Both the position numbers and the translations under genes were made by a program. DNA of 64,000 bases from Amoebophrya sp. A120 (lineage: Eukaryota; Protista; Dinoflagellata), in NCBI GenBank assembly GCA_905178155.1, contig CAJINV010000007.1:606358-670357 (forward strand), given 5' to 3'. The stretch's first letter is position 1, and every line of letters starts with the position of its first letter. The notes under the pieces are model-generated. The model saw only the letters and a list, made by a program, of their open reading frames with translations, did not search any database and was not told where the DNA came from. Positions 13,601 through 64,000 of this stretch are shown here, piece by piece.

Positions 13601-16600
13601 ACGCGATCGACGAGCTCAGGTTTGTGAATGCATATCGCGAGAAAAAAGTGTTACAGTTACACACTCTGATGGGAGACAAGCAAGACAGACAACTTCTGTC
13701 ATGCAGGAAATGCATGCCAGCCTCATTTCATTCGTGTTTTCCCTTATGGTCTGCGCATCACAGGTTTTCTTAGCCATGTCGAGCAACTTTGTGATGCAGA
13801 AACTCCAACAAATGTGTAATTGTAACACTTTTTTCCTGTGATAATGCAGATGGAATCATGAATACGGCAAGTGGTGAAAATGATGCTAGCAAAAATTCCT
13901 CGCCGTTGAAAATCCACTACATCGAGGTGGAGCCCGCCGTGGGGTATGAAAGTGCACAACTCCCTTTCCCCCTCATTTGTGATGCAAAGTGCCAACGCCA
14001 CCCTTTGCCTTTTGCCACGACTATGCATGACAGATTTTGAGAGCCGAAACAGCAACAGAATCGGTCGCCAATTTTTTGTCATGTAGAGCCTGCATCCTTG
14101 CCAGAGCTTGTGTTGCTGGGACTGCCATTCAAATGAGGCGGGGGGGGAGTTGTGCAGCACTCTCATATGGGGTTCGGCGAGCTCAAAACCGGTTCGCAAT
14201 CGTTTTTGCTGTTCCGGGATTTGCTGCAAAGGAAGTGGGTGGAGGACTGTCAGGCGATAGTGACTTCTACGCCGGAGAATGAAGTCTCCAGTACCAAGAA
14301 AACTGATCCAAAATCTTCCAACCTCATTTCGAGCAAGAAACACGAGAACAAAACCAACACTCCACTTCTGAAGAAACGCAACAGAAACGACGACTCCACC
14401 TCTGAAGACTCGGAAGATCTGGACCGCTTGGATTCGGACGACAGCACGGATAGCATTTCCTCTACTTCCGCAGAGAGCGACGAGGATGCCGAAGCTGTTT
14501 TGAAAAGCCGCATGAAAAAAATGAAACCAAAGAACAGGAAAAAGAAGCACAAAAACCACACTGGTGCGTCATCAAAAGGAGATCGCTCTACTAGCACAAC
14601 TGCGGACCCAAATACTGAATCAGCTGGTTCACCGCAAACTAACAAGCCGAAACTCGAAGTCCCACCCCTTCGCTCCATTTTCCACCTGTTCCACCGCATG
14701 TCGGCGCTGGCGAAAATCGCGACTTCCGAGCACAAAACGACTTTCGACAACCTCCAATTTCGCTTTCAGATAAAAGATTCAACGACAAAAGAAAACAACC
14801 AGCACGAAGTAGACAGCACACAGCAACAGCACACGGAACTCATCCCCTTCTACAACGAGTACGACATTGCGAACTCTTTAAACAACAAAAACCAGTTTGT
14901 CGAGCTGATGATCCTGACCCCGAACGGCGCGATTGACGCGCAACGGGTGGACAAGCAGGCGAAAAAGTACTTGATTTCCCTCGATTTCGCGCTGAAAAAT
15001 GGGTACAAGATGCTGCCAGAGAATCTGATGAACAACTACCTGTCCCGGGATTTGATACAAAGACAAGCGTTTCTGGTCACGCGGTTCTTCTTTCTGGCGC
15101 CTGGTACTTCTTCGGAGCAACACGAGACGAAGCGGAGGAGGGACAACGAATGGGTAGATTCGGCGCTGGACGCGTTGGAGTTATCCTGTGCAAAGGCATC
15201 GTACTCGTACTAATCGCAGTCATGCAAGACAAATTTCTTGTTTAACCTAAGTCAGCATGACAGATTCCATTTGTCATGCTGAGCGAATTTGTATTGCAGT
15301 ACTACGAGTACGATACTTTTGCAGTTCATAGGAGTTGGTGGATGACGATTTTGTCCGTTTCGCGACCGAGATGCAATTTTTGCTCGCACTCTGGGGACGG
15401 ATGCTGCTGGGCGGTGGTGGGTTTGGGAAGCATGACGAAGGGACGAATAATCCTCCGGTTATGCAGAATTTCGTCGCTATGTTGGATGACAGTAGCGACG
15501 GATTCGCTTTGCCAAGTTTAAGAACTGCTGCTACGCAAGCTGTTTCTAGCGAGGAGGCTGTAGAGGTGCCACTGCGCGAAGCAGAAACGTCGCATGCTGG
15601 TGCGGGAACATCGATACAGCAAGAAGATCAACACCACACGGAGGTAGAGGTAGTGGAGAAACCACTTCTATCGAATAAAGCGGACGACGAGGTTCTTCTT
15701 CTTCCCGTGACTCCGGATGCAGTGTCGGACGAGTCTGCAGCTTCACATGATGATCCTGTCGCGGAGCAGCAGTGGGTGCAGACCCATCTCACGTTCGACG
15801 AAATCCAAACCGAGGACGAGTTCAACAAGTACGTGCAACGAGAATTTTTCGACAAACTTGAAAACGGAAATACAAATAACACGATCAGTACAACTTCTAG
15901 CATCAAACCAGAACTGCAATTTCTCCCATCCGTCATGAAAGCATCCGACCGACTTCCGGCCTTCCTTCCCGTGGCAGACGTAGTTTTTGAACCTGAAGAA
16001 AGCCATAGCGAAGCAGACCTGCATAATCCGCCCTCTTTGCTGCAACGAGCTACAAGTTTCCTTTCTGCTACCGTATTTGGACGAACAAGCGCTCCAACCC
16101 AAATTATCCACCCGCTGGAGATCTCCCTGGCTAACGGCGCGAAATTGGACATGTTTGATGTCGCAATGCGTTCCCCACAGTACTTCTTCGACGAGACTCT
16201 GTGGGCAGTGGAAGCAAATTTGGGCCTCGATGACGCGGTCAAATTGGAACTGATACAGCCCTTGAAGATGGAACAAAATAAGACAGCAGCTGCAGAAGGC
16301 CGCGAGAAAGAACATCAGAAAGAACTCTACAAGATTGCGTGTTTGAAGCCGGTGTTCGAAATTGAGGCGGACAAAACGCAGCGGTACACGCTCGAGGTGA
16401 TCATCTTGGACTTTTTTCAGTTCGACCATGAAACCGGGCCGGGCAATGCAAATCCTTGTTTTCGTCATGGTCATGCAGAAGCAGCGACTGTGACCGCGAC
16501 ACCCACGGCAGCAGCTCCGGTTGTAGCGGTGCCGCCGCTTCTAGACGGTGGTCATTTGATGAACGACTTGTTTATTTCCGATGGTGGAAGTGATGTTTCT

Positions 16601-19600
16601 TCGGTCGAAGACGATCCGGTGAGGAGGACGCAGACTTCGTCCAACGACGTGCCTATCGCTATTGATGTCGTGGCGCAAGATGCAGTGGAGCGACATTCAC
16701 GATCTCCAACGGCGCCGACCATGGCTGGGAGATTTCTTTCTGAACAGGCTGCGATGAAACTTGGCGAGCAAGAATCTGGTGGCGCGATCCCTTCAGTGCC
16801 TCTAGCGAAGAAGAGGGCCATGCACGAATTGCATGAGCAGCATGACTTTCAAGAAGAAGACCACTCTACGGCTCCACTCGAGGCCGCACCGCTTCTGGCG
16901 AAGCGTCATGCAGCTACAAAAGAAGCCGCGGCGTCCCCGGATGCACGAAGCAAAGCGGCGAATCAAAACTACGGCAAGCAGGGTGACAGTACGACTTCAT
17001 CTCCCAGCTTGGCAGCCACGCCGGGTTCATCTCCACAGGTCGTGGGGCGGTCGGGTCGCCGGAGTACCAAGGGGAAGACAGCTACTAGTGAATCGACGGA
17101 AAAACAAGAAGCTCCGTCGCGACAGCAGGAGCAAACATCTGGAGTTCTTGAACAAGTAGAAGGATTTTTGTCAGGCCAAAAGCTGCCGACATCAACCTCG
17201 TCCCCACCTTCCATTTCCACCGGAAAGAAGAACACACCACCAAAGATATCAAGTGCAAAAATGTCTGGGTCTGGAAGATCGCAACTTGGCATGCTGTTTT
17301 TGCACGCTAAAAAAAGTATTGCATGACCAGCATTGTGCTACACGGACAGGGCATTTCTCATGCGGAAGGTGCATCAGGAAGCCCGCTAAAGGTCTGCGAT
17401 GCTAGGTCATGCATTACAGGCATGATAGGCCATGAGAAATATGCATGAAAAATCTTGCACTCTTCCAGACCCAGACATTTTTGCATTTGATAAAAGAAAA
17501 GGGTGCACTACTTCGACCTGCTGACAGACACTCCCGCCCATCTCCTGATCTTTCTCGCACAAGAATTCCCCGCGACTTTTATCACCGACGAGGTTCTCCA
17601 GAATCTGAAAGCGGCGAAGGAGAAAAACCTTTCTCTCAGTCCGATTTTGGAGAACGTGGAGCTGCAAGACCAGTTAGAACAATTCGGGCCGGACGGTTCG
17701 GAATTCGGGATTTGGACGGTAATCGAAAAGTGGGTAACCAACCGGTTTCAGAAATTGGATTCGCTCGCGAGAAAACTGGTCGTGAAGCGGGTGAGCGCGC
17801 CGGTAGCTAGTTCGGAAAAGGTTTCGGCTGTAGAACACTGGATGATCAAGGTGAATGAGGTTTTTGATAAGACGCTGAAAGTGGACCCGAAGTTGGTCGA
17901 GATGTTTCGGAGGGCAGCAGGAGGGGATCTGCAGCAGCAGCAGCAAAAACTGCCCATGAACAAGACTTCTGCAGTACAAGTAGGTGCTGCACCCACGAAA
18001 CCCGCGGCATCCACCTCTACCTCGTCTTCGCCAGTAGAACTCCAGCAGCTGCAAGCAGAGCCAGCATCAGCTGCAGTGGAGCCTCCAGTGCAAGACGCAG
18101 CTACAGCTGTTTTCCCGAGAAGTAGTGAAGTAGAGACGCCAATTGCAGGGACAAAAGAACAGCTTGAAGACCACTTGGTGCCTGCAATCAACAAGAAGAA
18201 CCCAGCGGTTCTTCAACTAGAGCCGCAACATTCCGTGTCCGCCCATCTTCCGCAAGAAAAACGACCATCAACATCGCAGGAGCTCTTAATCCTCCCGCGA
18301 ACGGAAAACTTCAAAATTGTTCCCGCAGTGGAGATTATGCAGCGGTGGCTGTATGCGATTGTTGCAGATGAAGCGGATTTATCAAATGCAAAAATGTCTG
18401 GGTCTGGGAGATTGCGAGATTTGTCATGCTAGTCTGGCATGACTCTGAACTCTGTGCTGTATGGCCGTTAAGAGCTCCTCTGCCCTGTCATGCAAAAACG
18501 CAGTTTCTCATGCGGAGTACGCAACTCAGAACCATGGAAAAAACTTGTCATGCTTGGCAGCGCATTACACTGAGTTCACTACTCCCTCTCTTGCGTCACA
18601 AGTTTGTTCCAGACCCAGACATTTTTGCAATTGATAGGATTTGGATGCGATCGACGAGGAGTTTGGCGAAGAAGGGGAAGAACAGCAACCTGTTGTCACG
18701 AAGTTTCAGCAGGATGCAGGAAGCATCAACGAAGGCGGAAATGAACCTGGGGAGGTCGGGCAGAACACAATGGCTGCACAAAGTTCTGTCATTCAGAAAA
18801 CAGCTCTACGTCTACAAGAAGAAGCTCACGACCTCGACGATGATGAGGATGGCAAAACCAGCCGTGCCAAAATGGCCCAAAACATCCAGGAGATCCTCGC
18901 GGAAGAGGATGAAAGCAATACCGAGCCACTACTGTACACTGCAAATCTGCCGGAACAAGCAACTGCGACAGTGGTTCCAGAGGATTTTCCTCTACCTGAG
19001 GTGACTACAGATCCTGAGGTTTTTGATACTGCTTCTACTGTTCCCGAAAGTGCAGCTTCTCTTTCGTCCTTGTTCTATGATGAGCTTGGCGCAATAGTAG
19101 ATGTCGGACCGGATCCTGTTGCTGCGTCGAACAACAGCATCAACCAACAGCACACAGAAATTCCCCCAGCAACAACATCTACTCCTACACCGCAAAGATT
19201 TCGAAACGGGAGGCGGGTAAAAACCCTGGACGAAATCATGCGGATGGACAACGATGGGGTGCATATCAAATGTAAAAATGTCTGGGTCTGGAAGATTGAA
19301 ACTTGTCATGCTAAATCCGAATAATGCAAAAATCTGTGTTGCATGAGTGCCAAAAGCTGTCCACTTTCGACCAAGTTGGGCGGGAGTTTCTCATGCGGGC
19401 TAGGCATGGTAGAGACCTCACAGACTCTGTCATGCTAGGTCCTGCATTCCAGACCTCATGGGTCATGGAAAATCTGCATGACAAACCTCGCAATCTTCCA
19501 GACCCAGACATTTTTGCAGTTGATACTGCAGGACTACATGCAACACCCCGACGACCCGTCTGGCTTCGACTTCCAGCGAGGGGCCGATTTAACAAAGGTC

Positions 19601-21546
19601 GGAGAGGACGCATTGGAAGTAGCGCAGGTGGGAGCAACAGGAACAAGGAAAATAAATTTCGCTGCAGTGGAGATGAACGGAACTACGATACTGGGTGGAG
19701 CAGGACACCAAGGGGCCGCGGGTTTGAAAATACCAGCAGGAGCAGCATCAACAAGAGCTACGGGCGGCATTCTTTCTTCGGCAGCACCGGCGGTACCAGC
19801 AGGGTCGTCCACCTGGATCATACCGCAAGCACCACCGGAAGAATTTCCAAACCTGCAGGCGGGTGACGATCAACTACAGTTGGACCAGGAAATCGAGGAC
19901 GAACTGCAGTACCAGCAAGACTTGTTGATGCGACTGGTTGAGGAAGACAAAGCCAGAGATGCGGAACTAGCTAGACATCAAAACGGGGAAGAAGAAGTCC
20001 TTGTGCAGCAAGCGGTACAACATGAACAGGAGGTTCATCTTCCGACGGCAGGAGTGGATCATCCCCCGCAGACTGCAGCAGAACCCGCGGCTGGTGCACC
20101 TTCAGATTCACTCCCTCTAGATGTTCTGAAACGACCTCAGCCTCCTGCAGAAGTCGAAATTTCATTCGAGGCGCCTCCAACAAATACCAGGTTCGAGCAC
20201 GAAGATTTACGGCATCCAGATCTGGACGATCTAGTGGGGCGAGATGAGGATGAAGAACATGATGGTGCAGTAACGACCCCAGATGTATCAAATGCGGGTC
20301 GAAATCCTTCTCCTTCACCCCTCTTCACGGCTGCGGAGTTGCACTGGCTCCTGCGACCGATGGCGTACGGAAAAAATGATCCGCCACCACGACCTGGTCG
20401 TTATGCAGCTGCGGGGGAATCCGAATCAGAAGCTAGTAGAAATGCAACACTCAGTACAACTTCTTCGGCTTCCGAAATAACGGAGAAGCGAAAAGAAGGA
20501 TCCGAGAGGGAGGTCGCTCTGGAAGTAACAGCAAACGGCACCACCTCAAATTATTCATCTGCGCAAAAGAAAGAACTCGAGCAACAACTGCGGAAGTTGC
20601 TGCCAGACGTACAACTTGAAGATGGCGCAACCACGACTCCAGAGCCGGAGCAGCTCGTGGACCAGAACCCAGGAGATGACATTGCGGCCAGTAGTTCACC
20701 ACCTACAGTGCCGGAAGCAGGCAGCAGAAATCACCCACTGCCTGTAGTTGTGAACAAAACTACTGCGTCAACATCATCCCGAGAACAGCAAGTAGAACCT
20801 GCAGACACCCTCCTCCCCTGGCCGTCCCACCCGAACGACCAGGAGGCCGCGAAGTGGGGGAGAGCCGGGCGGAGACGCGGAAACAAGAATCCTGGAGGGC
20901 CGGAGGTGAAGAAGAAAATTTTAGTTTTTCCAGCAGTGGACTTCTCCAGAGTGCAGAACAACAAGAATACGAAGATATCGAGTTTGTTTTTCCGGTTTGT
21001 CTCATACAAAAAGCTCCTACAATATGACAGTGCACAACTCCCCCTCCCCCTCATTTGTGATGCAAAATACCTAATTTACTCCTTGGCTCGTGGCCTTGTT
21101 TGCATGACAAGTTCTGGCAGCCCAAATAGCACAGACCTCCAGTCCATGTGAATTTGTCATGCGAAACCTGTATTCTTGCTAACGCTTGTATTGCTGTTCA
21201 TGCAATACAAATGAGGGGGAGGGGAGTTGTGCACTGTCATATACAAGTGGTTGTTTCCTGCTTTGCGGCGGTGTACCGGCGAGACGGGTTGTCGATAAAC
21301 AATCGGGTGGAGAATGAGGTTGATAGCAGCAAAAATGGGAACAATATCAGAAAGAAAAGCAACGACATCAAACCCGAAGCTCAAGACATGCAGCTCCACA
21401 TTTACACAACCGACGGTGAGCTGCAATTCGTGTACTCTTCGCAGCAGATGCTCAAGATGCGCGAGAACTATTTTCCCGAATTACTTCTAACTTTGTGGCA
21501 ACAAACTTACGACTTTCTGCGGTATGTGAAGTTGAATGAACAATGA
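10663..21546 (+). CDS. Very large (~3000 aa) hypothetical protein, 8 exons separated by 7 introners
   Basis: ORFs 10663, 13858, 14152, 15335, 17503, 18641, 19478 and 21148 join in frame when each element plus one TSD is removed (FVNA|DGIM, PAVG|FGEL, ALEL|VDDD, PPKK|RVHY, EADL|DAID, DGVQ|DYMQ, KLLQ|VVVS). An N-terminal hydrophobic segment suggests secretion. Confidence 0.85.
13633..13843. mobile_element. Introner family D
   Basis: TIR tatc..aaaaaagtgttacagttacaca / tgtgtaattgtaacacttttttcctgtgata; TSD atgca; frame restored. Confidence 0.92.
13945..14167. mobile_element. Introner family C
   Basis: TIR tatgaaagtgcacaactccc..cctcatttg / caaatgagg..gggagttgtgca..tcata; TSD tgggg. Confidence 0.92.
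15182..15330. mobile_element. Introner family B
   Basis: TIR tatcctgtgcaaaggcatcgtactcgta / tacgagtacgatacttttgcagttcata; TSD ggagt. Confidence 0.92.
17247..17492. mobile_element. Introner family A
   Basis: TIR tatcaagtgcaaaaatgtctgggtctggaag / cttccagacccagacatttttgcatttgata; TSD aaaga. Confidence 0.95.
18380..18636. mobile_element. Introner family A
   Basis: Family A TIRs; TSD ggatt; frame restored. Confidence 0.95.
19264..19525. mobile_element. Introner family A
   Basis: Family A TIRs; TSD gtgca/ctgca (1 mismatch). Confidence 0.93.
21023..21241. mobile_element. Introner family C
   Basis: Family C TIRs; TSD tacaa. Confidence 0.93.
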
Positions 21547-23327: not shown

Positions 23328-26300
23328 ATGAACCAGCGGAAGAACCCCTTCGCGGGGGGCGGGCTCGGCGGCCGCGGACAGCACGGAGGTGCCAAACACG
23401 GGAGTCAGCATGACGAAAACCAAAATGACGATGAGAATCAAAACAACCCAGGAGACGGCAGTGGCTCAAACAATTCCGGCAATTTGCTGGCCGAAACGTT
23501 CTATCAACTGCAAAAATGTCTGGGTCTGGAAGGTTGCAACGTGTCATGCTAAATCTGAATCAGGCAAAATAAAAAACTGTGTTGCATAATTGCCAAAAGT
23601 TGTGCACTTTTGACCTAACCGAGAGGCAGTTTCTCATGCAGAATAGGCATTAGAACGGTCTCGCGGAATCTGTCATGCTATGTCCTACATACCAGACGAG
23701 ACCTCATGGGTTATGCGAAATATGCATGACAAACCTGGTGGCAATCTTCCAGACCCAGACATATTTGCAGTTCATACCTTCTCCATCGAAACTCGGTTCA
23801 ATGAGTTCTTCGACTCCCGCCCCGTCATGCTGTCGATGGCCTGTTTGACCGTATTTGTCTTATGGGGTGACGACCTTCGGTTGTACGCGTTTCCGAAAGA
23901 TTACGACCCGGTCTTCTACACCTTTTTCCTCATGGCCTTTCTCATTTTCTTTTTCGAGTTTATGGGGAACACGATCTGCAAGCCGGGTTACAAGGGCGGG
24001 TTCTTCTTCTGGCTGGATTTGATCGCGACATTTAGTTTGCTGATCGACATTCCCTGGGTCCTGGCACTGATCGAGAAGTTAATCGCGAGTAGTTCCGGGC
24101 AGTCGGACGACGAAGAATCGGGTGCAGCGTCGATCTATGCATTGCAAATGTGTCTGGGTCTGGAATGGTGTGAACTTGTGATGCGCATTTCACAACACAC
24201 ACAAATCTCTGATGCGTAGGCAGCAAAAGATGCCCACTTACTGTCACCAAAATGGAGGATTTGTCATGCGGATTCGGCATTGCGGAATCTTCTCGAAACC
24301 TGTGATGCTAGGGCTTCCATGCCAGAGCTTCTGTGTCATGCAAACACAGCACGACAAAACTCTGCAGTCTTCCAGACCCAGACATCCTTGCATTTCATAC
24401 GATCAACTCCACGGTCGCGACGGTGCGAACTGCCCGGGCGGTGCGGCTCGTGCGGTTGATCCGGTTGGTGCGAGTGGTGAAGCTGTGGTCCATGGTACGG
24501 AAGGCGAACGAGTTTTGGGAGTGTCAGGATTGAAATCGTCGAATTTGAAATACTAGTTTGTCATGCATAGAATACAGCCCACAAAGTGCCTGTCTTGCAG
24601 AGTAGGCAAGTGAGGTAGATCGTAAGCTTGTTGAGGGGTAGAAACTGAGCTGCTAAAGTAGGATGACAAAAGGCGTCTTCCTTACCCAAACAGCATGAGA
24701 GAAACTGGATTTCGGCTCTACCCAAATTTGTCATGCGCCACTTGGAAAGTGGGTTACAACTTTCATCCATTTTATGCATATACTTACAAACTTTGTCGGT
24801 TTCAATCCTGACACATCCATACGAATCCCAAACGGACGAGATGCTGCAGCAGCAACAACGGAATGCGCAGAACGCGAAGCAAGCGGCTCTGAAGCGGGTG
24901 GAGGCAAGTCGGTTGGGGAAGTTGTTGTCGGAGATGACGACAAGACGGGTCGTCGTCATGGTACTGATGATGCTCTTCGTCTTACCGTTTCTCGACCCGG
25001 CGGATTTGGACAACTCCAAAGTGTTCGGTCTCTCGCTCCTGTTCTGGTTCGGCCGCAGCTGGTGCGACACGAATCCAAGTGGTGCGACATCTTCAGGTAG
25101 TTCCTCTTCCTCCTCCTCCGCGGCTTCTTCCAGTGACCACTACGGGTGTTCCGAGTTTCAAACGGAAAACTGGCTTTTTCTTGACGGGTGGCGGCTATGA
25201 CCTACTCAAACGTTACAATCTCAAACGTTGCAATAGAGTCTGGAATTTGTTGTCTCGCATAATGAGCATGACAGACTCGCAGACCATTCCACTTTCTGCA
25301 ACACAAATTTCGGCAGATTGTAGTCTGGTTTGGGACTCCGGAACTTGTCATGCGCAGTCCTATGAGACTTGGCTAGATCATGCACTTCTTGCATGACAGA
25401 TTTGCAAGTTCTATTGTAACGTTTGAGATTGTAACGGTTGAGCAGGTCATAGCGGCACCTGGTGTTTTCCTATTCGCAGCTCAGCCGGGACCGCTATGAA
25501 GTGCAAATATGTCTGGGTCTGGATGAAAAGTGGAACTTGTAATGCGTGTCTTGCATTTCTGGAAAATCTTCTGTGTTGCATGTGTAGCAAAAGAGGAGCT
25601 TCCACCTTTGTCATGCAAAAACGAGATTTGTAATGCGTGCTAGGCATCAACCGGCGTCTGAAAAACTTGTCATGCTTGGCTGCCATTGCATTTGCAAGCG
25701 CCTCCGTGAACATGCGCGACTCAGCATCACAGGTTTCCAGACCGAGACAAATTTGCATTTCATAACCGGTACGCAAGCACGACTGCGGACCACCTGAAAC
25801 TGACCGAACCGCTGCTGTGGTATGCATTGCAAATATGTCTGGGACTGGAAGGTTGCAACTTGTGATGCTGTCCTCACATTCCAAAAGGATTGGTAGTGCA
25901 GGAGCAGCAAGAGAAGTCCAGTTTGTGCTACGTGGGGAAGGCATTTCTCATGCGGAATTTTAGAAATCTGTGATGCTAGATCATGCATTACAAGCATCGC
26001 CGGTCATGCGAAGTATGCATGACAAACGTGGCAATCTTCCAGACCCAGACATATTTGCATTTGATATGTGGCTGCGGGTCCCCAATTGGGCGGACGGGGG
26101 GAAGATGAGCGACATCGCGTCGGTATCAATTGCAAAAATGTGGTCTGGGTCTGGAAGAGTCATGCTGCTTTTGCATGACACAGAAGGCCTGCCATGGAAG
26201 TTCTAGGATCACAGGTTTCGAGAAGCTTCCGCAAAAATGCCGAATCCGCATGACAAATCCCCCATTCTGGTGACAGAAAGTGGCCAGCTTTTGCTGCCTG

Positions 26301-48457: not shown

Positions 48458-48524
48458 CCAACTGCGTCGGACTTGTTCCCCTTTGCCCTCCTGAGCTGCT
48501 CCGCTTTTATAACAGCAGCGCGAG

Positions 48525-48811: not shown

Positions 48812-48992
48812 GCGCGTTTTCCATAGTTTGGTTTTTTTGACGATGGTTGCAGCTTCGTCCACGTACTTCTGCGGAATCCAGGCGCACATCAGCTTGTGGA
48901 CATGTTCTACATCCGGGAGGGAACCATCATACGACTCGGGACCGTAGGCGCGTGCTTCGGCGGGGGCGATCTGTTCATTAGGAGAATGGAAA

Positions 48993-49243: not shown

Positions 49244-49435
49244 TCAAATTTTCGTCGTGGATCTTCGCCGCTTCCAGCACCTCATGGTCGATTTTCAGGC
49301 TTTTTTCATTCTCATGAAGGTCGTCGTTGTGGCAGGAGCTTAGCTGCATCGTGTTGAGATGTTGTTGGTCCCCTGCAGCCTCTCCTCGCGCGGCTGCCAC
49401 TGCCAGTTGTGCTACTGCTAAACGACGGACCTGGG

Positions 49436-49506
49436 TATCAAGTGCAAATATGTCTGGGCCTCGAAGAATGCAGACTTGTGATGCTCTTTTTCAGTTACGC
49501 AAAAAA
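49436..49506. mobile_element. Truncated family A element (left end only)
   Basis: tatcaagtgcaaatatgtctgggcctcgaag, no right TIR. Confidence 0.7.
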
Positions 49507-49589
49507 CCTTCGTTCACCCCTGTCGTCCTCCGTAGCTTGTTCATCTCGTGCAAGCACCCCTATAAAAAGATATCTGACTTCAGTTCAAC

Positions 49590-49882
49590 TACATCGGTTG
49601 TAAAAACGTCCCCACCCCAGAGTCGAGATGGTAAATCTGCAATACAAATCTCCAGGAAATGGGAGTTGTGCATGACAAGTTTTCACCTGCAGCAGGGTAG
49701 TGCTGCTTAGCAAGGGAACAAGCCGCATGAGAGAGCCACTTTCTTATCCTGTTTACAGCATTACAAATTTCTTGAAAACACGACTGGAAATGCCCCTCAT
49801 GGAGCTGCGCATTACAACAAATGATTCCGTCATTGCACATTTGCATGACAGCTCTGGGGTGGGTACGTTTTTGCTGATGATA
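49590..49882. mobile_element. Introner family H, left boundary approximate
   Basis: aaaaacgtccccaccccagag / ctctggggtgggtacgttttt..gata; TSD not resolved. Confidence 0.75.
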
Positions 49883-49967
49883 CTGACGGATACCACGGGG
49901 TACTTGATGCCCGCCTACGAGGGCGACCCTCCGAAGGGCTGCACTGTGAAATACCAGACCAGTCACG

Positions 49968-50010
49968 TATCAATTGCAAAAATGTCTGGGTCTGGAAGAT
50001 TGCAACTTGT
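49968..50010. mobile_element. Truncated family A element (left TIR only)
   Basis: Near-consensus left TIR followed by unrelated sequence. Confidence 0.75.
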
Positions 50011-52479
50011 CTGGAAAGGCTGTTGCTGAATATTAAAAACGGGGGATGAAATATTAAACTGTAGTTGCGGAAATCGAAATAATAACCCTGACAGGCCAGA
50101 GCCGACCGACGCAGATAGGGTTGTTCCTTCAGGGTTACTTAATAAGGGGCTTAGGTTAGGGTTTGTATTTTAGCTCTACACTATGAAAAAATCCGGCTGC
50201 AGAACATGTTTTTGCTTTTATCATTTCAAATTCTACGTATGAGTTTCTTCCTTTTTAGTTTTGTAACGACCAGATCGAGATCCATTTTCAAATTCTACGG
50301 TGTGGTCACGACCAGATCGAGATCCAGAACGATTATTCTACCGGTTTTCCTTATTTCTGTCGTTTCGCACCCATTTGAAAGTATTAATGTTTCTTTGCCA
50401 AAAATGTAACAGTTTAGGTTTTTCTTTTTGATTTTGCACCTTCGAAATTTTCGTTTTTTCATTAAGTTCTTTTTGCCTCGTTTCAGTCGTCTCTAGGAGC
50501 AAACTATCGAAGGAGAAGCAGAAAGAAGCTACAACTCGGCTTATTTTTTGAAGCCTCCAATACAACAGTTACAGTAGCCGTACTCGCACGAGAATAATTA
50601 CCTGACCCCCCCTATCATCACGCTGTAGCCCAGTGGGACTGGAGCGCCGCTCTCTTTTTTTCCGGCTTCGCAAATTCATACATTGATTGAGCAACTACTG
50701 GAAGACGAGCGCTAATAGAAATGAATTTGCTTGCCGGGTTATATCTAAGATTGCAATGGCGCGATAGTTTCTTTCGCTTGCCCACCCCATACCCGGACTC
50801 ACTTTTATAGCCTCGGTGGAATGAAAAAAGCCTCCCGAACGAGGAAAGATGTAAAAGAAAGCACTTAGTGCACGTGGGCAGTCGTTCTTCAATTTTTACC
50901 CCCGTAGTTGTTGCAGAGTCGAGGAAGACGGGAAGGAAAGAGCGGAATAGCAACGTTTCGCTTCCCTTCCAGTCTTGCTCGAGCTATCCCGGCTCGGCTC
51001 TGCAACTCTGCAGCGATTATTCTCACAGTAGTAAGTTTTCATTCGATATCGATTCCCAGAAGAGGGAAGCCAAAAGCTATCACTTTCGCACGATGACACC
51101 CTTCGAGGTAGCAGGAGCAGCTCGATTTGCGGCTCGCGAGATTATGGGACAAAGTGAATGCTTATGCTTTCCTCGCAACAGTTTTACCCGACCCGCTGCC
51201 AAAAAAATATCCGCAAAAGATGGAAGCCTCTTCCCAGTGCGGTCCATGAAGATAGGGTAGGCATTGATTGCCACCCGCCCGTGTTCGTTCCGTGCAGAAA
51301 GTTTTTCCCTGCGTATAATGTGGTGTCCTTTATAATTTTGCGACTGTCCTAGTAGTTCTACTGGTTCTTGCTCCCCTCTCCCCTCCCAAATTTCTCTGCA
51401 AGATCGATGAGGAGAGCATGAGCAGGTGTTCAACAGCACTCCAGACAGCGGATGTTGTACTTAGCTGTTTGTTGAAGCTCAAATTAATAAAGCCCAACCG
51501 GCAGACTCAGAAGTCTCAGAAAAGCGGTACAACTACAAGATACGTCGAGCGCGTTTTTAGCTGACACTACGCAGCACTTAATGAGGCTAGGGTCCTGTTT
51601 TATGTTTTTGTTTTATTTAATTATGATGCAGCGGAAATGCTTTGAACAGCGGCACTGAGCAAGATCATCCTGAGTACTAAAAAGTAATTCCTCTGTTTTG
51701 AGATTAAGTTGTGCAGCAGTGCAGCGTGCGGCGTGAATCATATTAGAAAGATAGTTCTTAGCAGCAGCAGCGTGCGACCAAGAAGATGGACGAAGATCAC
51801 GGTCAGGTACGGCCCGAAGATCACCTGGCAAAGGATCTCGTGTAGATCACGATCTAGACAATATATCTCACGCAAGATTTTTCCCTTTGGTTCCTTGGTT
51901 TATCTTTATGTGCATGTTGACCTGCTTAAGTATTTGATTTGTAGTGTTATGCTTTGCTGTTGCTGGGCCTGGGCATATGAGTCCGGTTCGCTAGGTGTGC
52001 GACTTTATTGAGCCAGAATTCATCGAACAATAGGATTCGCAATCACAGCTGCAGTTTCGTTTTGTTACTTGTAGTTTGTCAACCATCAAAATGTCGAAGG
52101 TTCTACTTCCTTTTGTTTCTGCAGGCTATTATGGTTGTTCTCATGCTCGTGCATTATAAAGCAAAGCGAGAGCTGAAACAGCTGCAATTGTAAGCGACAC
52201 AAAAGCTTAACTTTTGATCTACCTATGAATACATTGTTCGTCTTTTTTTGCACGACTTTACCTTTAAATTTGTCTGTGTTTGCTGATATAAGCCCGCTAC
52301 TGCCGTGTAATCTATTATTGCAAAAGTACGTCGTTTAATATTTCTGCGGAAAAAATGCCGGAGGGTTCTTTCGTAAGGCTGTAAAAAGCAGAAGTGAAAG
52401 ACTCAACGACCAGAAGAATATTTTTACAGAGAACCACTCTACTGTTTCTGAAGATGACCACAACATTTACTAGATTAGT

Positions 52480-55400: not shown

Positions 55401-58400
55401 TCCCTCTCCCGACGACAGGGAAGGACCAGAGGAAACGACGGAGAAAGTGCCATGCTGCGTCGACGGCGGTATTCAGGCAAAAACAGAAAAACTACACACA
55501 TCCTGTGCACCACTAGCACTTCCAGAAGATGCTGTGAAAAAGGATGACACGAAAAAGTCCCGGACCTTCGAGGAACCCACTGCATCGCCGATGCCAAAAT
55601 CTACTCCGGCTGCTGCGTCGAATGTTAAAGCGAAGAAGAAGAACGGGAACAAGAGCGGGACGAACAAGCAGGCAGAAGAACAAAGCAAAAGTTCTCGTAC
55701 GCAGATCGCGGCTGACATTTCTTCTCCTACGCGCCACCACACGACCAGCGAAGACGTGTTAATACAGGAAGAAGCCAGCACACTAGCAGGAGAAGAAGTC
55801 ATTGCCGTGAACGATCACGGGATTCCGGAAGTTTTGCCAGGATTGCTGTTTTATCAACTGCAAAAATGTCTGGGTCTGGATGAATGCATGTTCGTCATGC
55901 TTGTCTGGCATGACTCTTAAATCTGTCATGCACATTACCCAAGAGCCGGAGCCCCATTTTTCTGTCATGCAGAGACGCAGCCTGTCATGCAGAATAGGCA
56001 ACACCTGGAAGCTCATAAACTTGTCATGCTGAGCCAGCACTTGTGGCCTCCTCGTGATACGCCACTCAGCATCACAAGTTTCCAGACCCAGACACTTTTG
56101 CATTTGATATGTTTTCCTACAACAAAAGACTCCCACTGACCACCTGGGACGACCCGGTCATTGAGAGATTTTTCAAGGAAATCGAAGCCGAGGCCGAGAA
56201 GATCTTGAATCTGAAAACTTCCAAAAGCACACAGAAGGATATAACCCGCTCAGGTGTTACAATCTCAAACGTTACAATAGAGTTTGCAACTTGTGTTGCA
56301 TGATGCGCATGACTGACTCGCAGAGGGCTCCACTCTCTGCAATACAAATTTCGCCAGATTGTAGTGGGGTTTGGGACTCCGGAGCTTGTCATGCGCAATC
56401 CTATGAGAGTGGGCTAGAACATGCACTCTTGCATCACAGATTTCCATATTCTATTGTAACGTTTGAGATTGTAGCAGCTGAGCGGGTTATAAAGGACCTT
56501 ATCCGCAAGCAGCTGGCGGATAAGAACTACGCGAAGAAAACTTTGCAGGAGCTTTTACCGAAGGCGCGGTGGGAAATTCTAGAGGGAAAGGCACGGCTGG
56601 AAGAGTTTTATTCCAACAAAAAGAGGGAAATAACGGAAAGGCTGACCATTTCTGCACAACAGGGTGATGGACAAGAACACCAGATGACGGTAGACCAACT
56701 CTACGACGCGGCTGTGGCGGAGGCGCGGGATCTCAGCAGCGAGGAAATTGCGGAAAAGATACTAAGACCGGATGTCAAGCGGGCTTTCAGCAAAATTGGG
56801 AATGTCATATCTCGTCAGCGGAACAAAATCCTGCCGCGGGAGTCCGAGGTTATCAAGTATCGCAAGAACAAACTGTTTCACTGTGAACTTGTGATGCATA
56901 GAATGGAGCACAGAACGATTTGTCTTGCTACAGCTGCAAGACATCGGATTTTTAGGCGTGTTTTCCCTGCTTTGGAAGCACGCATGGCAAATTTTCTGTG
57001 TCATGTGTAACAAATTTGTGATGCAGATCTTGCAAAGCCATCACAGTGAAACAGTTTTTTCGTGGGATATCAAGACGGGCGTTTTTAAAGAAGCCAGCAC
57101 CGGGTTGTTGATGTGGGTGGACGTGTATCAAATGCAAAAATGTCTGGGTCTCGAAGAATGCAAGTTTCTCATGCTTGTCGGGCATGACTCGAGAATCTGT
57201 GTTGCATAAAGCACGAAGAAGCCCTCTTACCTGTCATGCAAAAACGCAGTTTGCCATGCGGAATACGTAAGACATGGCAGCCAAAAAATTTGTCATGCAT
57301 AGCTGCGTATTGCAGTGCGTCTATCATTCACTTTTAGCATTACAAGTTTCCAGACCCAGACATATTTGCAATCCATAACGTGGCGGGCAGCAGCGCAGAG
57401 AAAAGACAGACGAAAGCGGGTCTGCAAAGCATGATGCGGGGGAGGATTGTCGTTGAGGTAGACGAAGCGGACGCGGTTTGGTCGAAAGAAAGGATGGAGG
57501 AACGGAAGCAAAGACGGACGGAAGTGGCGTTGGAAGATTCAAAGGTCCAAGAGCAATTGCAGCTGAAAGAAGCGCCAACTACAAAAGACCGTACAACGGC
57601 CCGCGTGGAGCAGCTACAGGCTCCAGCCGACACTACTTCTGCGCACCACGCAGTAGAAGAACCACGGGCAGATGAAGGCTCTGTTGCGGCAGCACCTAGA
57701 AGGGAAGCAGAGATGATGGTGGAGGCAGAGCCGAGTGCGATAAACCGTGGTGATGAAAAAATTGCTTCACAGGTGGACGTTGCTCCACAGGTGGACGAGC
57801 CGGGTAGAAATGTTCAACCACAACCATTACCACCTTCCGCAAGCACTCCTGTCGTCGCACAACTTGGGAAGAAGGCGCAGAGGAAGGCCAAAGCGAAGGC
57901 CCGAGCGAACAACGGCGAGAATAATAACCACACAAATAAATCCGACACAGCTCCTACAACCGCTGCAGACGGAGCTACAGCTGAAGGATCGGAGAGTATG
58001 ACGGGACCACCAACAAAAAAGAGCACAGGTGAAAAAAATCAAATCCGCGAAGTAGTACCTACAAATATGAACAAGCACGGTTTTCCGGAAACCCTTCCCG
58101 CGTTGCTCTATTCTTACGAGCGGTTTCTCCCCTTAACCAGTTGGGACGATCCGAAACTGACGCAAATTTTAGCCGACATCGAGGAACACGCCAACCGGAA
58201 TCTGGGGCGCAAGACCAGCGCTTTGGGGCGCAGTTTGGCGGCGCAACACCAACAACTTCTAACGGGGGCGCAGCAGCAACCAGGTGGAGGTCAACACCAG
58301 CTCGCCCAGCAATGCCGGGGCGGACTCCGGGGGAGCTTCGGGAGCAGCGTGGCGACGAGACAGGCGTTGTCGGAGAAACACTATGCTCAGAAGACGATTG

Positions 58401-61400
58401 ACAAATTACTCCCCGAGGCGTACGCCGAAATTGAAGAGCAGAAAAAGCGGCTTCTCGCGTTTAACAAAGAGCACAGCAAAAAGGGAAAGCGAAACGAACT
58501 CTTCACGGAGGAAGAATTTGTGCAGATGATTCTCGCGCAGGAGAATGGCGGTCCCCCGCGGGCCTACGAGAAATTTGGCAACAAACTGGTGCGCGTGAAC
58601 AACGATTCGCTTACTGGCTGCGACACGGAACTAATCCCAACCGGGGTGCTGAAGGAGAGACAAACCGGGCTTTTGATGTGGATGGATATCAAAACGGCCA
58701 ACGCAACAAGGATTCTGACCAACTCGACCGTGACCACCCTGGGCGGCACGTTGCGGGTTGAGAGGGACGAGTCGGATCCGGTGGAGCTCGCAACGAAGAT
58801 TGAGTCGGTGAAAGACGTATCCTGCGCAAAAGTATCGTACTCGTATTGCAGTCATGCATTACACATCCTGTTCTTAAGGTAAATCAGCATTACAAATTTT
58901 ATTTCTCATCATGCTGAGTAAAGTTGTATATGCATTTATACGAGTGCGATACTTTCGCAATGCATAAGACGGGCGGAGTAAGGAGCACGTGTTGGTGGAG
59001 CAAGAAGATGTTGTCGGAAAAAATCAATCTCCCGTTGTGCCAGAAATTCTTGCATCAGGAGCTGCATCCTCTTCAAATGCAAACCCGTGCTCTGGCTCTA
59101 GCTTCTCTGCGACACAAAGACAAGCGTCCCCCGAGCGAACGGGTGTTGTGGCCTGTTCCGGACAAGATGAAGTAGAAGCATCACAGCCTCTGCTGGCGCT
59201 GAAACAGGACGCCCCTTCCTCTGTGGAATCACCACCGGGTGTAACAACTGTGCCAACATCGTATGTCGCTAATCAGGAGCCAGTACAATGCGGCGGTACA
59301 ACAGCTGTGGCAGGAAAACTATCTTCTTCACCAGCAGTTGCGCATGCTGCAAGTCAGCAGGGTAGTAATACTCCCGTAAGATTACACGACGACCCCTCGT
59401 GTGGCAATACGCAAGTCATCAAACAACCCCCTCTCGAGGACGACCAGGAGCAGGCACAAGCAGAACTGCCGGCCGCGCCTTCTGCTGCAGAAGAATTGCA
59501 GTCGGTTCTAGCAAATGGAGCTGCGACAGAAGTGGGAAGGCACGACCTCGAGCACCATGAGCACCAGCATCACGGCACGCAGACAGTTTCACCCACTGAA
59601 GCCGAGGCGGAGGAGGATGCTTTGTCCGTGCAACTGGCTGCAAAGCTGTCGCTCAATGACACAACAGCTACTTGTCCTTCGCCGATTCTAGTTAATTCCC
59701 ATCATCATGAAAAAGATGAAACAACTTCTACCTCCGCACCACAAGCAGATGGCGAAAGATCGGTCCAAAGCAGGTCGTACAAGAAGCTCGGGTCTGTCGC
59801 GCGGTTATTTCACCACATTGGGATTTTCACCACGGTGCTCCCTCATGAGAAAGAACAAGAAATCCGCCGCTTCGAGAACTTCAGGCGGTCACTTGACGGT
59901 TATGACAGTGCACAGCTCCCCCCCCCCCTCATTTGTAAGTATGGCATGAACAGCAATACAAACACCAGCACACGTGGAGCCTGTACATGACAAATTTATG
60001 TGCCTGATGTAGTACTGTTTTGGCTTCCAGAATCTGTCTTGCAAACAGTGCCACAACGCACCGACTGGATTTGAGGTTTTGCATGACAAACGAGGGGGAG
60101 GGGGAGTTGTGCACTCTCATACCGGTTCTTCGAACAAACAACATCAAACTCTACTTCAGCAGTTTGATTTCTTCCGCGGACGGCAGGCCAACTACTGGAC
60201 ACTGACCGCTATCGAAACCTACTTGCGGTTTTTGGAGTACGAGCTAGAGAGGGAAGAAGATCAACATGCCGGAGCCAACTACTCGAGTCCTAACGCAACT
60301 GGTGCTGGTAGTCACGGAGCAGGCGCAGGTGTCGTGTCTCCTTCTGGTGGGAAGCAAAGCAGTTCGGGCAAGGAAGATGTGGGGAAGAAGAAGAGCCTTT
60401 TTGCTCGCCTAATCGGTAGAAGCAGCTCGTCTTTGGTGCGAACGACAAGGGGAGGCCCCTCAGGAGAGGATGCTGCAGTGTTGCGAAACACGGCGAAAAT
60501 AAACGAGGATATTCCCGCGACAAGTGCTAGGGCCGCTCCTGCGGCGATTGCAAGTAGCACGATGAAAACAGCGAGCAGGCTCTTGACCGAGAAGCACATC
60601 CGAGAAGCGCGCGAAGAGTTGATGCTGATAAAAAACCACAACGCCAAAAATTGTGCGGTTCAGGAGCATGACAAAGACCAGAAATTCCAGATTGTCGGCT
60701 GGACTAACTACCTGACCGAACATCTCCGCTTACCGTGGGGGGAGTTTGTGACCCTGTCCCAGGTGGAGGCATATCAAATGCATAAATGTCTGGGTCTGGA
60801 AACATGTGATGCTGGGTGTCGTATCATGATGAGGGCACAAGTGCTGGCTCAGCATGACAAGTCTCTGAGCTTCTAGGTGTTGCCTATTCTGCATGACAAA
60901 CTGCATTTCTGCATGACAGAAAAGCTGGGTATCCGGGTAGACCAGGGCCCCTGCTCAGACCAGGGCCCCTGGGACCAGGGCCCCCAGGACCAGGGCCCCT
61001 AGGACCAGGGCCCCTAGGACCAGGGCCCCTAGGACCAGGGCCCCTACGGATTGGGGCCCCTGCGGACTGAACGGCATCCCGGAATCTGGTACACGGCGCG
61101 GCGCGGCCGGAAGCGGAGATGTCTACCAGCGGATCTTCCAGTCGAAATAATCTGGGCCACCAAGTAAGTATGCATGTCATGGGACTCCTAGTATCTGGCC
61201 AGGAGGTAGAAGAAGGTAGGCCACAAGTAATATGGGACGCAGTCGGCTGACTACCCAGAGCATTTCTCTCACTTTCTAGATTCCTCGACGCGCGTCGGCG
61301 TCACAAGTTCTCAGTTGTGCAGACCCAGATCTATTTACAATGCAACGGGCATCGTTTTTTTTTGTAGTCAGCCACGTACTTGAGCTTCTCCGTCTGTCTT

Positions 61401-64000
61401 TTTTGGGTGGTGTCGTTGAGGAATCTTGTGCATTTTTTTCCCTTGATGATGCTTGTCTGAACGATTATTCTGTAAATCTCCGCCGCAGCTTCGATGTAGT
61501 ATGGCAGTTTCATTCTCGGTATTTTTTCATAGCGGCGCCATCGGTGCGTATGTGGGGTACGGAAATGCGCATTTTTTCGCGGCACCGACGACGGGCGGCG
61601 GGTTGGTGCGCAGTTGTACTGTCGCGCGATAGATATCAAGGGGAACTGCTTCGCATATTTTTCCGCCTGGAAATCCAGCTGGAAACATTCGGGAAGGAGA
61701 TGCAGCCGAAGAGGAAGATGCCCTTTCAATGCATTTCCCGCTGGAATTCCAGCTCGAAACATTTGGAAAAGGCATCTGCGCTGCATTTCCGCCTGGAAAT
61801 GCAGCTGAAGGCGCCTTTTCAATGCATTTCTTGCTGGAAATCCAGCTGGAATTATTTGGAAAAGACATCCGCAGCGGATTTCCACCTGGGAATGCAGCTG
61901 CAGACGCCTTGTCAGTGCATTTCTAGACGGAAATCCAGCTGGTGGAAACATTTGGAAAAGGCATCTGCAGCGCGTTCCCACCTGGAATCGCAGCTGCAGA
62001 CGTCTTCTCAGTGCGTTTCTAGCAGGAAATCCAGCTGGTGAAAACATTTGGAAAAGGCAGTTGCAGCGCGTTTCCACCTGGAAACGCAACTGCAGATGCC
62101 TTTTCAACGCATTTCTAGCTGGAAATCCAGCTAGAAATGCACTCGGTAACCAAATCAAAGCAAGCTTGCTCGTGACATCACACCAGGGAGATCTTGATCT
62201 CTTCCCCCGTCCGCACCTGCGCATCCTGGGCAAAAACATGCGGGGATGTTTTTGCCCAGGTTCTGCTGCTACACGTCATGTATCTAATTATTAGGTTCTG
62301 GCTTTTATAGGAATATCAATATGCGAAGCCTTTCCATGTCATACCACGCAGATCAACACTTATGCTTTGCCTGTGCCTGTACACGTGCCCTGCCCCTGCG
62401 CGCCAAGTAACGACAAGCAGCATGAAGAGCCCAACAACTTTCCGCCGAGTCATGAAGCCAAAAATAAAGAAGCACAGTGAGACGCCACGACCGACGGGCG
62501 CCGTTTGTATTCGAAGTGTGTGTTTCCCTGCAAAAGCATTGCTCGAGCGGACCGGGATGCAGCTCAAACTGCTAACGAGAGAGATCACAAATTGCCACCA
62601 TGACCGCCAAGCTTTCCTTCGTTTGTACGTAGAGCGACGCCCCAACTTCTCCAGATCCAGACACCAGATTCCGGGATGCCAGATTCCGAGACACCGTAGG
62701 GACCCCAGTCCGTAGGGGCCCCACTCCGTAGGGGCCCCAGTCCGTAGGGGCCCCAATCTGTAGGGGCCCTGGTCCCAGGGGCCCCTATTCCAGGGGCCCT
62801 GGTCCTAGGGGCCCTGGTCCCAGGGGCCCTGGTCTACACCTTTACCGAAAAGCTGAGCTCTCGGGTAACGCGCATGACAGATTTAAGAGGCATGCCAGAC
62901 AAGCATGACAAACATGCATTCTTTCATACCCAGACATATTTGCACTTGATAAGGCACTAAACACACGACTAGCAACTACATCTGCTTCCTCTTCTTCAAC
63001 ATCCTCTTCGCCGGGGAACAAGGGCCAGAGGAAGATTTTATCCTGTGCAAAAGTATCGTACTCGTATTGCAGTGATGTAATTACAAATCTTTTTCTTAAG
63101 GTAAATCAGCATTACAAATTTTGTTTCTCATGCTGAGGAAATTTGTAATGCATTTATAAGTACGAGTGCGATACTTTTGCAATCCATAGATTTTCGGGCG
63201 CGAACATTTCCTCTTTCTCGACACCGTGAAAGACGCAGATGAGAGAATCAAAGCCGGAAATAACCCCGCTGGAAAGCATCCTGGCAACGTCGCGGTGTTC
63301 TCTTCAATAAATACAAGAGGACAGCAAAGTGCGGCTGGTGCAGATGGCCACGTTGGCTGTACTAGAGAACAAGAAGACAATTCTCAGCACACATCATTAT
63401 CGGGTGGTCTGCTGAACCATGTGAAGCAGGGAAAGTTTGCGAGTTACGAGGAAATTACGGTAACAAATGCCTTTATGAGAGTGTCAGGATTGAAATCGTC
63501 AAAGTTGAAATGATTTGCCATGCATAAAATGGATGCCAGTCGGAAGCCCACTTATCAAGCGGCGCATGACAAATTTTCCGAGCACCGGAATCCAATTTGT
63601 CATGCTGCTTAGGCCCAGAAGACTGCTTTTGTCATGCTATCTTAGCAGCTCTATTTAAAACCCTAAACAGGCTCACAATCGGCCATACTTGCCATCCCGG
63701 CAAGACAGGCGCCGCATGCTTTGCATTTTATGCATGACAAACTACTATTTCAACTTTGGCGATTTCAATCCTGACAGATCCATAGCCTTTCTGGAGAAGA
63801 TGTTGCCCAGTGTGGAGCGTGTAATATCAAATGCAAAAATGTCTGGGTCTGGAAGGATGCAACTTGTGATGCTACCTCTGGACTCTACATAAAATCTGTA
63901 TTGCATGAACAGCAAAAGAGGTGTATTTTGTGCTACGCGGAGAGGGCATTTCTCATGCGGTATGAGCATCAGAAAGCCCTCGCAAAATCTCTGATGCTAG
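52480..64000 (+). CDS. Very large hypothetical protein with a duplicated unknown domain; at least 10 introners; continues beyond the window
   Basis: In-frame joins GLLF|SYNK, TQKD|LIRK, EVIK|TGVF, WVDV|AGSS, SVKD|GRSK, SLDG|SSNK, QVEA|LNTR, QRKI|FGRE, TNAF|LEKM. The true start may be a downstream ATG. Confidence 0.85.
55852..56109. mobile_element. Introner family A
   Basis: Family A TIRs; TSD tgttt. Confidence 0.94.
56240..56491. mobile_element. Introner family E
   Basis: Family E TIRs; TSD aagga. Confidence 0.94.
56858..57069. mobile_element. Introner family I
   Basis: TIR tatcgcaagaacaaactgtttcactgtga / tcacagtgaaacagttttttcgtgggata; TSD tcaag. Confidence 0.92.
57126..57377. mobile_element. 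Introner family A
   Basis: Family A TIRs; TSD acgtg. Confidence 0.93.
58818..58966. mobile_element. Introner family B
   Basis: Family B TIRs; TSD agacg. Confidence 0.93.
59901..60121. mobile_element. Introner family C
   Basis: Family C TIRs; TSD acggt/ccggt. Confidence 0.92.
60928..62846. mobile_element. Non-autonomous foldback/Mutator-like DNA transposon
   Basis: Perfect 9-bp TSD gaaaagctg (60919-60927, 62847-62855). TIR ggta..gtagaccagggcccct is extended by inverted arrays of 15-bp ggaccagggccccta units. No recognisable transposase. Confidence 0.85.
61657..62140. repeat. Internal satellite of semi-palindromic tttcc(a/g)(g/c)ctggaaa / gcagctgc units
   Basis: Recurring gctggaaatccagctgg..aaacatttggaaaaggcatctgc blocks. 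Confidence 0.85.
63039..63188. mobile_element. Introner family B
   Basis: Family B TIRs; TSD gattt. Confidence 0.94.
63474..63784. mobile_element. Introner family F
   Basis: Family F TIRs; TSD gcctt. Confidence 0.93.
63825..64000. mobile_element. Introner family A, cut by the window edge
   Basis: Consensus left TIR and family A interior. Confidence 0.9.

Follow-up and report, generated by a model that had tools for sequence, protein, structure and literature searches.

Introners account for 17% of the Amoebophrya sp. A120 assembly and have been sorted into 1,954 families (PMC7789003). According to the introner passages of that report, their inverted repeats consist of TAT, seven variable bases and an A run and are accompanied by short direct repeats; no transposase was found for introners, their splicing mechanism is not known, the position of the border is called unknown in the legend of Fig. 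3, and U1 snRNA was not detected in the genome (PMC7789003). PMC12130899 gives A120 family lengths of 149, 209, 252-260, 278, 305 and 319 bp among the rows listed, annotates one family with ‘5-bp TSD, TA/TA Termini’, and contains a family of ~810 bp with TA ends and a 5-bp duplication, which is labelled Ginger and described as homologous to LTR elements. In the text portions of these two descriptions (PMC7789003, PMC12130899), only the ends are treated, and an internal shared motif, its spacing and a fixed splice register are absent. Neither the octamer analyzed below nor a TIR word is present in the 14 supplementary files of PMC12130899. Literature searches likewise gave no account of such an internal motif for these introners. 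The motif is apparently undescribed, within a known element class.

Short subterminal repeats bound by the transposase are described for hAT elements (Ac, Tol2, Hermes) and for piggyBac/piggyBat in the relevant sections of PMC3355664, PMC10368747 and PMC11707139. As in the introners, short sites in both orientations lie inside the TIRs, and in hAT and piggyBac they are carried by autonomous as well as non-autonomous copies. Unlike these repeats, the introner motif is common to many families with differing inner TIRs, fills the whole short element and is arranged in 31-33-bp pairs, and its binder is putative. The usual target site duplication (TSD) of hAT elements is 8 bp. For hAT5, a TSD of 5 bp is given, the same as in introners, and IS3EU has TAYGG..CCRTA ends with a 6-bp TSD (PMC12730594, sections on these groups); introners share the TAY, whereas 0 of 146 elements had a 6-bp TSD. 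GingerRoot has TA..TA ends as found here, with a TSD of 6 bp instead of 5 bp (PMC6839031), TDD-4/5 have the 5-bp TSD of introners, and Ginger1/Ginger2 (TDD) end in TGTNR instead of TAT (PMC2836005), as stated in the parts of these sources on termini. None of IS3EU, GingerRoot and Ginger is matched fully by introner ends and duplication length. Euglenid nonconventional introns and the MITE-derived introns of Fritillaria are likewise mobile elements with TIRs and TSDs which are removed at non-GT-AG borders; their end signals are different, and no comparable internal motif is described in the passages of PMC11282704 on these introns.

Introners of the window

The window is the whole analyzed stretch of 64 kb. 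Its exon 26383-26835 has 100% identity to an Amoebophrya sp. A120 protein and 66% to the A25 protein. A protein search using a KIN17 exon gave no match, and the TIR pattern had no match in viral contigs. Element borders were set by the TIR plus the flanking duplication and then curated, which gave 44 complete elements of 146-339 bp each, 10,873 bp together (Table 1). They are introners, bounded by TAY..RTA and flanked by 5-bp duplications of the target. As in the published signature, the inverted repeat reads TAT, seven variable bases and an A run (PMC7789003, introner passages), and the family lengths are similar to those given for A120 families (PMC12130899, rows listed).

Family-A elements were also searched by TIR alone, no TSD length being assumed: 124 of the 146 elements in the matches listed had a TSD of 5 bp and none had a TSD of 6-10 bp. 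Over 356 elements (matches listed from a second assembly included), end positions 1-3 are T/A/T at 0.98-1.00 and end positions 11-13 are A at 0.86-0.92. Families C, E and F depart from this A run, and a consensus beginning with TATGG is confined to family F and one new family. TIRs, TSDs, many copies and no coding capacity place the elements among the non-autonomous TIR DNA transposons (MITEs). When the elements are taken out together with one duplication each, open frames of 3144, 604, 503 and 2462 aa are recovered, which span 7, 8, 8 and 9 junctions, respectively.

Table 1. Introners of the window with motif sites (strand given as + or -), same-strand pairs and lengths skipped in transcript contigs.
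Element	Position	Motif sites and pairs	Orientation, TSD, transcripts
B	13633..13843	sites 13680-, 13697+, 13712-, 13755-, 13790+	removal in frame
C	13945..14167	sites 13978+, 14025-; pair 14077+/14109+	
D	15182..15330	pair 15224-/15255-; sites 15272+, 15290+	
A1	17247..17492	six sites; pair 17411-/17443-	
A2	18380..18636	sites 18486/18506/18546 (original prediction), 18422+	
A1	19264..19525	pairs 19304+/19335+, 19444-/19476-	267 nt skipped
C	21023..21241	pair 21155+/21187+	224 nt skipped
A1, adenylate-cyclase-like gene	23502..23776	first pair stretched to 36 bp	
A3	24136..24399	pairs 24177+/24208+, 24301+/24334+	
F	24514..24821	pairs 24559+/24591+, 24661-/24693-	
E	25196..25451	pair 25266-/25298-	
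A2	25495..25764		TSD mismatch at position 5; 275 nt skipped
A1	25821..26066		251 nt skipped
A3	26124..26381		reverse; 263 nt skipped
D	26838..26983	no 31-33-bp pair detected	TSD mismatch at position 4
A1	27435..27696	pairs 27475+/27506+, 27615-/27647-	267 nt skipped
G, TAC ends	27762..28078	pairs 27818+/27850+, 27901+/27933+	322 nt skipped
D, left end TAA, insert of ~790 bp	28228..29158		936 nt skipped exactly
E	29261..29520		reverse; 265 nt skipped
H	29582..29871	six sites, all on minus strand; three pairs	295 nt skipped
D	30063..30218	pair 30132+/30163+	reverse; 161 nt skipped
B	30400..30610		reverse; TSD mismatch at position 5; 216 nt skipped
A1	30668..30932	two pairs	270 nt skipped
A1, degenerate	31105..31394	no 31-33-bp pair	295 nt skipped
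C	31458..31679	pair 31508-/31540-	reverse; 227 nt skipped
B, degenerate	31781..31965		TSD mismatches at positions 2 and 4; 190 nt skipped
K	40439..40707	two sites	
A1	40977..41237	two pairs	
F	41826..42132	two pairs	
G	42192..42516	three pairs	
D	42529..42684	two sites	
A1	42836..43100	two pairs	
A1	43503..43764		reverse
G, diverged	45960..46298		
A2	46400..46655		
Clustered H, C and A elements, broken or with only one end	48085..50030 (approximate)	octamers present	
A, diverged	48525..48811	no exact octamer; five matrix sites	
H	49590..49882	six sites on minus strand; three pairs (31-34 bp)	
A2	55852..56109	sites 55893/55924/55963/55983/56022 (original prediction), 56069-	
E	56240..56491	pair 56307-/56339-	
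J	56858..57069	pair 56890+/56921+	
A2	57126..57377	pair 57167+/57198+	
D	58818..58966	pair 58856-/58887-	
C	59901..60121	pair 59953-/59985-	reverse
A2, split by nested 1,919-bp element	60772..62951		5-bp TSD intact
D	63039..63188		
F	63474..63784	two pairs	
A1, cut off at window end	63826..64000		

The octamer, its extended motif and the kinship of the families

The original prediction held that one octamer is repeated, in four variants, inside unrelated TIR families. The four octamers and their complements have 162 exact matches in the 64 kb. The complete elements contain 137 of them (12.6/kb over 10,873 bp), broken elements (1,291 bp) account for 16, and the remaining 51,836 bp have 9 (0.17/kb), i.e. 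an enrichment of about 70-fold inside elements. At least one exact octamer is present in 43 of the 44 complete elements and at least two in 39. The claimed rarity in exons and in the element-free ORF 4889-9265 was borne out, the latter containing none, and the enrichment persists over a composition-matched background (4.0 ± 1.9 octamers in dinucleotide-shuffled elements, maximum 11 in 200 shuffles). All eight octamer positions quoted were correct (spacings 31/39/20/39 and 20/40); the site at 55893 is CGTCATGC, a fifth octamer variant.

A second public assembly was sampled by TIR pattern (at least 165 overlapping loci, 492 kb). Its DNA ligase is 87% identical to that of A120, so that it represents a related but distinct lineage. 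At least 314 candidate elements were obtained, two of which were discarded as false on inspection; family A is over-represented, since the loci were picked by the family-A TIR. An exact octamer occurs in 303 of 312 elements among the matches listed, including TIR families absent from the window, and the octamer density in these matches is 12.8/kb in element-like DNA vs. 0.36/kb outside, i.e. about 35-fold.

In our main reading, which is given a probability of about 0.55 as a whole, the octamer forms the central part of a ~13-bp motif that selection has maintained in every family of these introners, and the motif would be a repeated double-stranded DNA site for a putative protein mobilizing these elements. 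The consensus from a matrix trained on the window is about AAAYY-TGT[C/A/G][A/T]TGC-W. Without constraints, EM motif discovery ended up with ~10 weak sites in each element; the matrix at 10% false discovery was used instead and gave 236 sites, about five per element in both orientations.

Conservation was determined by leave-one-out comparison, the sites being defined on the held-out copy. Core identity is 0.81-0.94 vs. 0.55-0.83 for the spacer in 8 of 8 families, and position 4 (0.63) behaves like the spacer (0.68). Counted as private differences in 260 copies (matches listed included), the values are 0.040 for the core, 0.046 for the inner TIR, 0.109 for position 4 and 0.107 for the spacer. 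Six core bases change about one third as often as spacer DNA, at the same rate as the inner TIR. A single free base within an otherwise invariant core suggests sequence-specific recognition. When motif and flanking interior were compared over five divergence bins, as had been proposed, the core was found to be retained, with a core/spacer difference ratio of 0.35-0.44; spacer-based binning biased this ratio, so the bins were redone with split halves. A steady ratio would equally follow from host selection after insertion. Concerning decay after insertion, 4 of 29 private changes lie in cores (expected 5.1 if neutral and 2.1 if constrained), a comparison of low power, and TSD mismatch used as an age clock (221 vs. 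39 copies), which has no power, gave no excess in any class.

The families had been taken for unrelated, and this part did not hold. Judged by sequence, they are related and not independent: TAY..RTA ends and the 5-bp duplication are common to all, the TIR types intergrade, and 21 of 118 cross-group consensus pairs align above motif-preserving shuffles (z above 3). Families C, E and one new family are alignable end to end despite differing TIRs, and spacers within pairs have a weak cross-family similarity (0.344 vs. 0.288). This alignability implies that the motif code was inherited and retained while the TIRs turned over; separate origins of the motif in unrelated families are not supported. 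What stands of the predicted family-independent code is a selectively kept motif across differing inner TIRs. The alignable consensus pairs and the similar pair spacers would also suit the remnant of an ancestral module that had been repeated, or biased mutation or repair, now without function. However, this explanation is very improbable and already largely refuted, since position 4 changes at the spacer rate between six core positions changing at about one third of it, and since the same dinucleotide, GC, is conserved where it belongs to a site but not elsewhere (8 of 8 families). The counter-case named beforehand, alignable descendants of one element with the motif decaying at the neutral rate, applies to the kinship and fails for the decay.

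Paired sites and a putative DNA-binding protein

Same-strand pairs with a spacing of 31-33 bp are present in 8 of 8 TIR groups of the window, and counting by family majority likewise gives 8 of 8. With representatives selected after the map was seen, a total of 8 groups was not attained at any distance in 5,000 null sets. The most frequent distances in the held-out set are 31, 32 and 33 bp (218, 147 and 76 in the matches listed), and random representatives have a pair in 9.6 of 12 clusters vs. 1.8 (matches listed). These pairs in all groups are new here, as are two minimal elements of 112-113 bp, which consist of TIRs, one 32-bp pair and little else. Paired sites are better kept than unpaired sites (0.051 vs. 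0.094). In 322 of 356 elements (matches listed from the second assembly included), each end has a site no more than 65 bp away; as in subterminal repeats, a short repeated site is found inside both ends and is conserved above its flanks. The direction of the end-proximal site differs by family, pointing inward in some and outward in others. The pair is absent from one seven-copy family, which has opposed sites 45-49 bp apart instead, and no pair was detectable in 34 of 162 intragenic elements (matches listed included).

In two family A copies, site starts had been noted to lie about 10n bp apart. The site distances make such a spacing firm for three turns (31-33 bp) and suggestive beyond. The main groups agree with a period of 10.5 bp (p = 0.005 after period search); for all site distances in 7 main groups, the fit is 0.41 (p = 0.001, related families being merged and the parameters taken over from the earlier period search), whereas 11 bp fails (-0.18). 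For the main groups, a grid of 16 bp does about as well as 10.5 bp (0.37, p = 0.003), group H is out of the 10.5-bp phase, and 13 held-out small families have a 10.5-bp fit of only 0.12 (p = 0.12). Phase relative to the element ends gave p = 0.003 for the first sites of the main groups, with an ill-defined period, and p = 0.05-0.12 in the held-out set; such end-relative phasing is a lead only. Length changes inside pairs are only slightly rarer than those between other sites (5.2 vs. 6.5 per kb, p = 0.065, TIR-adjacent intervals dropped; p = 0.001 when these were kept). Of the helically phased protein site that had been suggested, the fixed same-strand spacing of 31-33 bp fits a protein on B-DNA, and the general phase is suggestive.

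In the main reading, a transposase (perhaps integrase-like) or a partner would bind two sites on the same helix face, three B-DNA turns apart, and the bound protein may help to bring the two ends together, so that they can be cut at TAY..RTA with a stagger of 5 bp. This role is proposed by analogy with the subterminal repeats of hAT or piggyBac elements. As the motif is retained while inner TIRs turn over, a single binding specificity would be enough for all families, and the presence of the motif in every TIR type examined suggests one mobilizing system rather than many. Because of the ~810-bp family labelled Ginger, the best lead is an integrase-like enzyme. A transposase domain (Pfam) was found neither in 134 ORFs of the second assembly (matches listed) nor in 12 window ORFs, and no autonomous partner with matching ends was among six longer TIR pairs or the 134 ORFs (~0.5 Mb, matches listed). 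A 1,104-bp element of the second assembly (locus L027) has a 238-aa frame without Pfam match and resembles a motif-bearing element carrying an insert. The motif pair (32 bp) or the natural 112-bp minimal element is a concrete bait for the missing protein.

The main rival takes the motif for a site bound by a chromatin or other DNA-binding protein of the host, which would act as a transposition accessory or mark the element for splicing during transcription. IHF or HMG proteins act as such accessories for other elements. A host site predicts every DNA-type signature observed (conservation, no covariation, phase, strand independence), and it would explain one motif across differing inner TIRs and across two lineages, as well as the failure to find a transposase in the 134 ORFs and in the published search (PMC7789003, introner passages). 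We nevertheless consider it unlikely. Motif sites lie near both element ends, a nested 1,919-bp element of different kind (60928-62846) lacks the octamer, and the sole GT-AG intron checked (27071-27253) lacks a matrix site. Moreover, matrix matches in window exons and intergenic DNA are at chance level (82 in 51.8 kb, i.e. 1.6/kb, vs. about 2/kb in shuffles), which argues against a common host site.

Removal from transcripts and the RNA alternative

The element plus 5 nt is skipped exactly at 16 joints in contigs of the runs X3, X4, X5 and X7 (one sample, presumed RNA); these are the joints among those listed, two plus 14 of 15 from a longer listing, and the fifteenth is a 67-nt skip within an element with one side of 22 nt. 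The raw-read RNA runs X9 and X10 have 193 and 3 reads on the window, all partial and at element ends; being few and partial, they say nothing on splicing. Where the two duplications differ, the transcripts carry positions 1-4 of the upstream copy and position 5 of the downstream copy, and a cut after TSD position 4 is the sole register fitting all 16 joints listed. Template switching by reverse transcriptase was considered as a possible origin of the skips. It would be expected to retain the downstream TSD copy, yet positions 1-4 come from the upstream one, and the reading frames require the removal; on these grounds it was rejected. The window elements are removed from transcripts at non-GT-AG borders.

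For the motif itself, an RNA stem or an RNA protein site marking the element for non-canonical splicing had also been predicted. Action in the pre-mRNA would agree with both motif orientations being present in 148 of 162 intragenic elements (matches listed included), with at least four sites in each of the 19 spliced window elements mapped, with cores being paired more often than spacers in predicted folds (0.76 vs. 0.60), with a bias in group A towards more sense UGUSAUGC (45 vs. 20 elements) and with the undetected U1 snRNA (PMC7789003, introner passages). The stem is not supported by the opposed sites, in which the free position does not covary in any of three classes (0.41 vs. 0.45 permuted, 0.27 vs. 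0.50 and 0.41 vs. 0.37); position 4 pairs in 51 of 137 cases, and G-U (9) is not preferred over C-A (6). Permutation p-values for other motif positions mix site classes and were not used. Intragenic elements occur in both orientations, and site conservation is independent of transcript orientation (0.063 vs. 0.073, p = 0.20), which speaks against the stem and against a single-strand protein site alike.

Further, the H elements of the window have sites on one strand only, and the one at 29582 is nonetheless spliced. Sense UGUSAUGC is absent from ten intragenic elements and the reverse from four (matches listed included), and non-A families are unbiased (33 vs. 31). Six of the 19 spliced elements are without a 31-33-bp pair, the element with the ~790-bp insert is spliced exactly, and it is the ends that determine the splice register. 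A motif acting in the pre-mRNA is accordingly improbable, and a splicing role is disfavoured; the motif is likely read on DNA. A single-strand RNA splicing site keeps a small share of likelihood because all 19 mapped elements retain at least four sites.

The ends, rather than the motif, would chiefly direct splicing. It is rather doubtful that a single system unites both processes, in which one trans-acting protein (possibly of the host) would read all A120-type families via phased 31-33-bp pairs, TIR interiors being free if complementary, and would also mark U1-less splicing, one base before the left end and four after the right. The fixed splice register provides a testable rule for non-canonical introner borders. 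The resulting intron has N-U-A-U at its start and A-U-A-N-N-N-N at its end, and a run of U occupies -18 to -15. In this one contig sample, the invariant U at +2 and the nearby adenosine would suit a spliceosome measuring from the ends in either orientation.

Splice register and terminal repeats

Besides 19 introners, the adenylate-cyclase-like gene contains a single GT-AG intron (27071-27253). Among transcript contigs from one sample, a single splice register was compatible with all 16 joints (window 19259-31970), in which the target duplication (TSD) is cut after its position 4 and before position 5. The intron therefore consists of TSD position 5, the element TAY..RTA and TSD positions 1-4. 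In this register, U is invariant at intron position +2, and no 3' dinucleotide is conserved.

The terminal inverted repeats (TIRs) were compared for all elements. The outer part following TAY (positions 4-10) changes at a rate of 0.12, which equals the spacer rate, whereas positions 11-29 are conserved. Complementarity between the two ends is low at positions 4-7 (0.39-0.73). On the sense strand, TIR mispairs comprise 206 G-U versus 182 C-A.

Interrupted and unusual elements

The D element was skipped exactly despite its insert in contigs of both X3 and X4, two runs of one sample presumed to be RNA. The nested element has subterminal repeats arranged in tandem and is presumably Mutator-like; the octamer, i.e., the core of the introner motif, is absent from its 1,919 bp. 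Since the reading frame is continuous, splicing is predicted to remove the entire 2.2-kb composite of A2 introner and nested element. Other repeated DNA, without a motif array, was observed at window 32600-35300.

Coordinates of features in the window and in loci of the second assembly (L022, L027, L057)
Feature	Location	Remarks
Adenylate-cyclase-like gene	window 23217-32551	includes ion-channel-like segment
D element	window 28228-29158	left end TAA; insert of ~790 bp
Inverted pair	window 34188-34227 and 34678-34717	within repeated DNA
Nested element, 1,919 bp	window 60928-62846	within A2 introner; GG ends, 9-bp duplication
Minimal element, 113 bp	L022 1032-1144	TIRs and single 32-bp motif pair
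Minimal element, 112 bp	L057 1008-1119	TIRs and single 32-bp motif pair
Element of new TIR type, 1,104 bp	L027 367-1470	32-bp motif pair close to left end; repeat-rich insert

Orientation and relation between lineages

In the window and the 165 loci of the second assembly (L001-L165), group A elements favour one orientation with respect to the host gene by about 2:1; no such bias was found there for the other families. Element copies of the two lineages are up to 96% identical (window 57126-57377 compared), while their ligase proteins are 87% identical, and this difference in sequence identity suggests shared recent activity or an exchange of elements between both lineages. The A1 element at window 40973-41242 carries four extra bases (TACT) between the apparent duplication and its left end.
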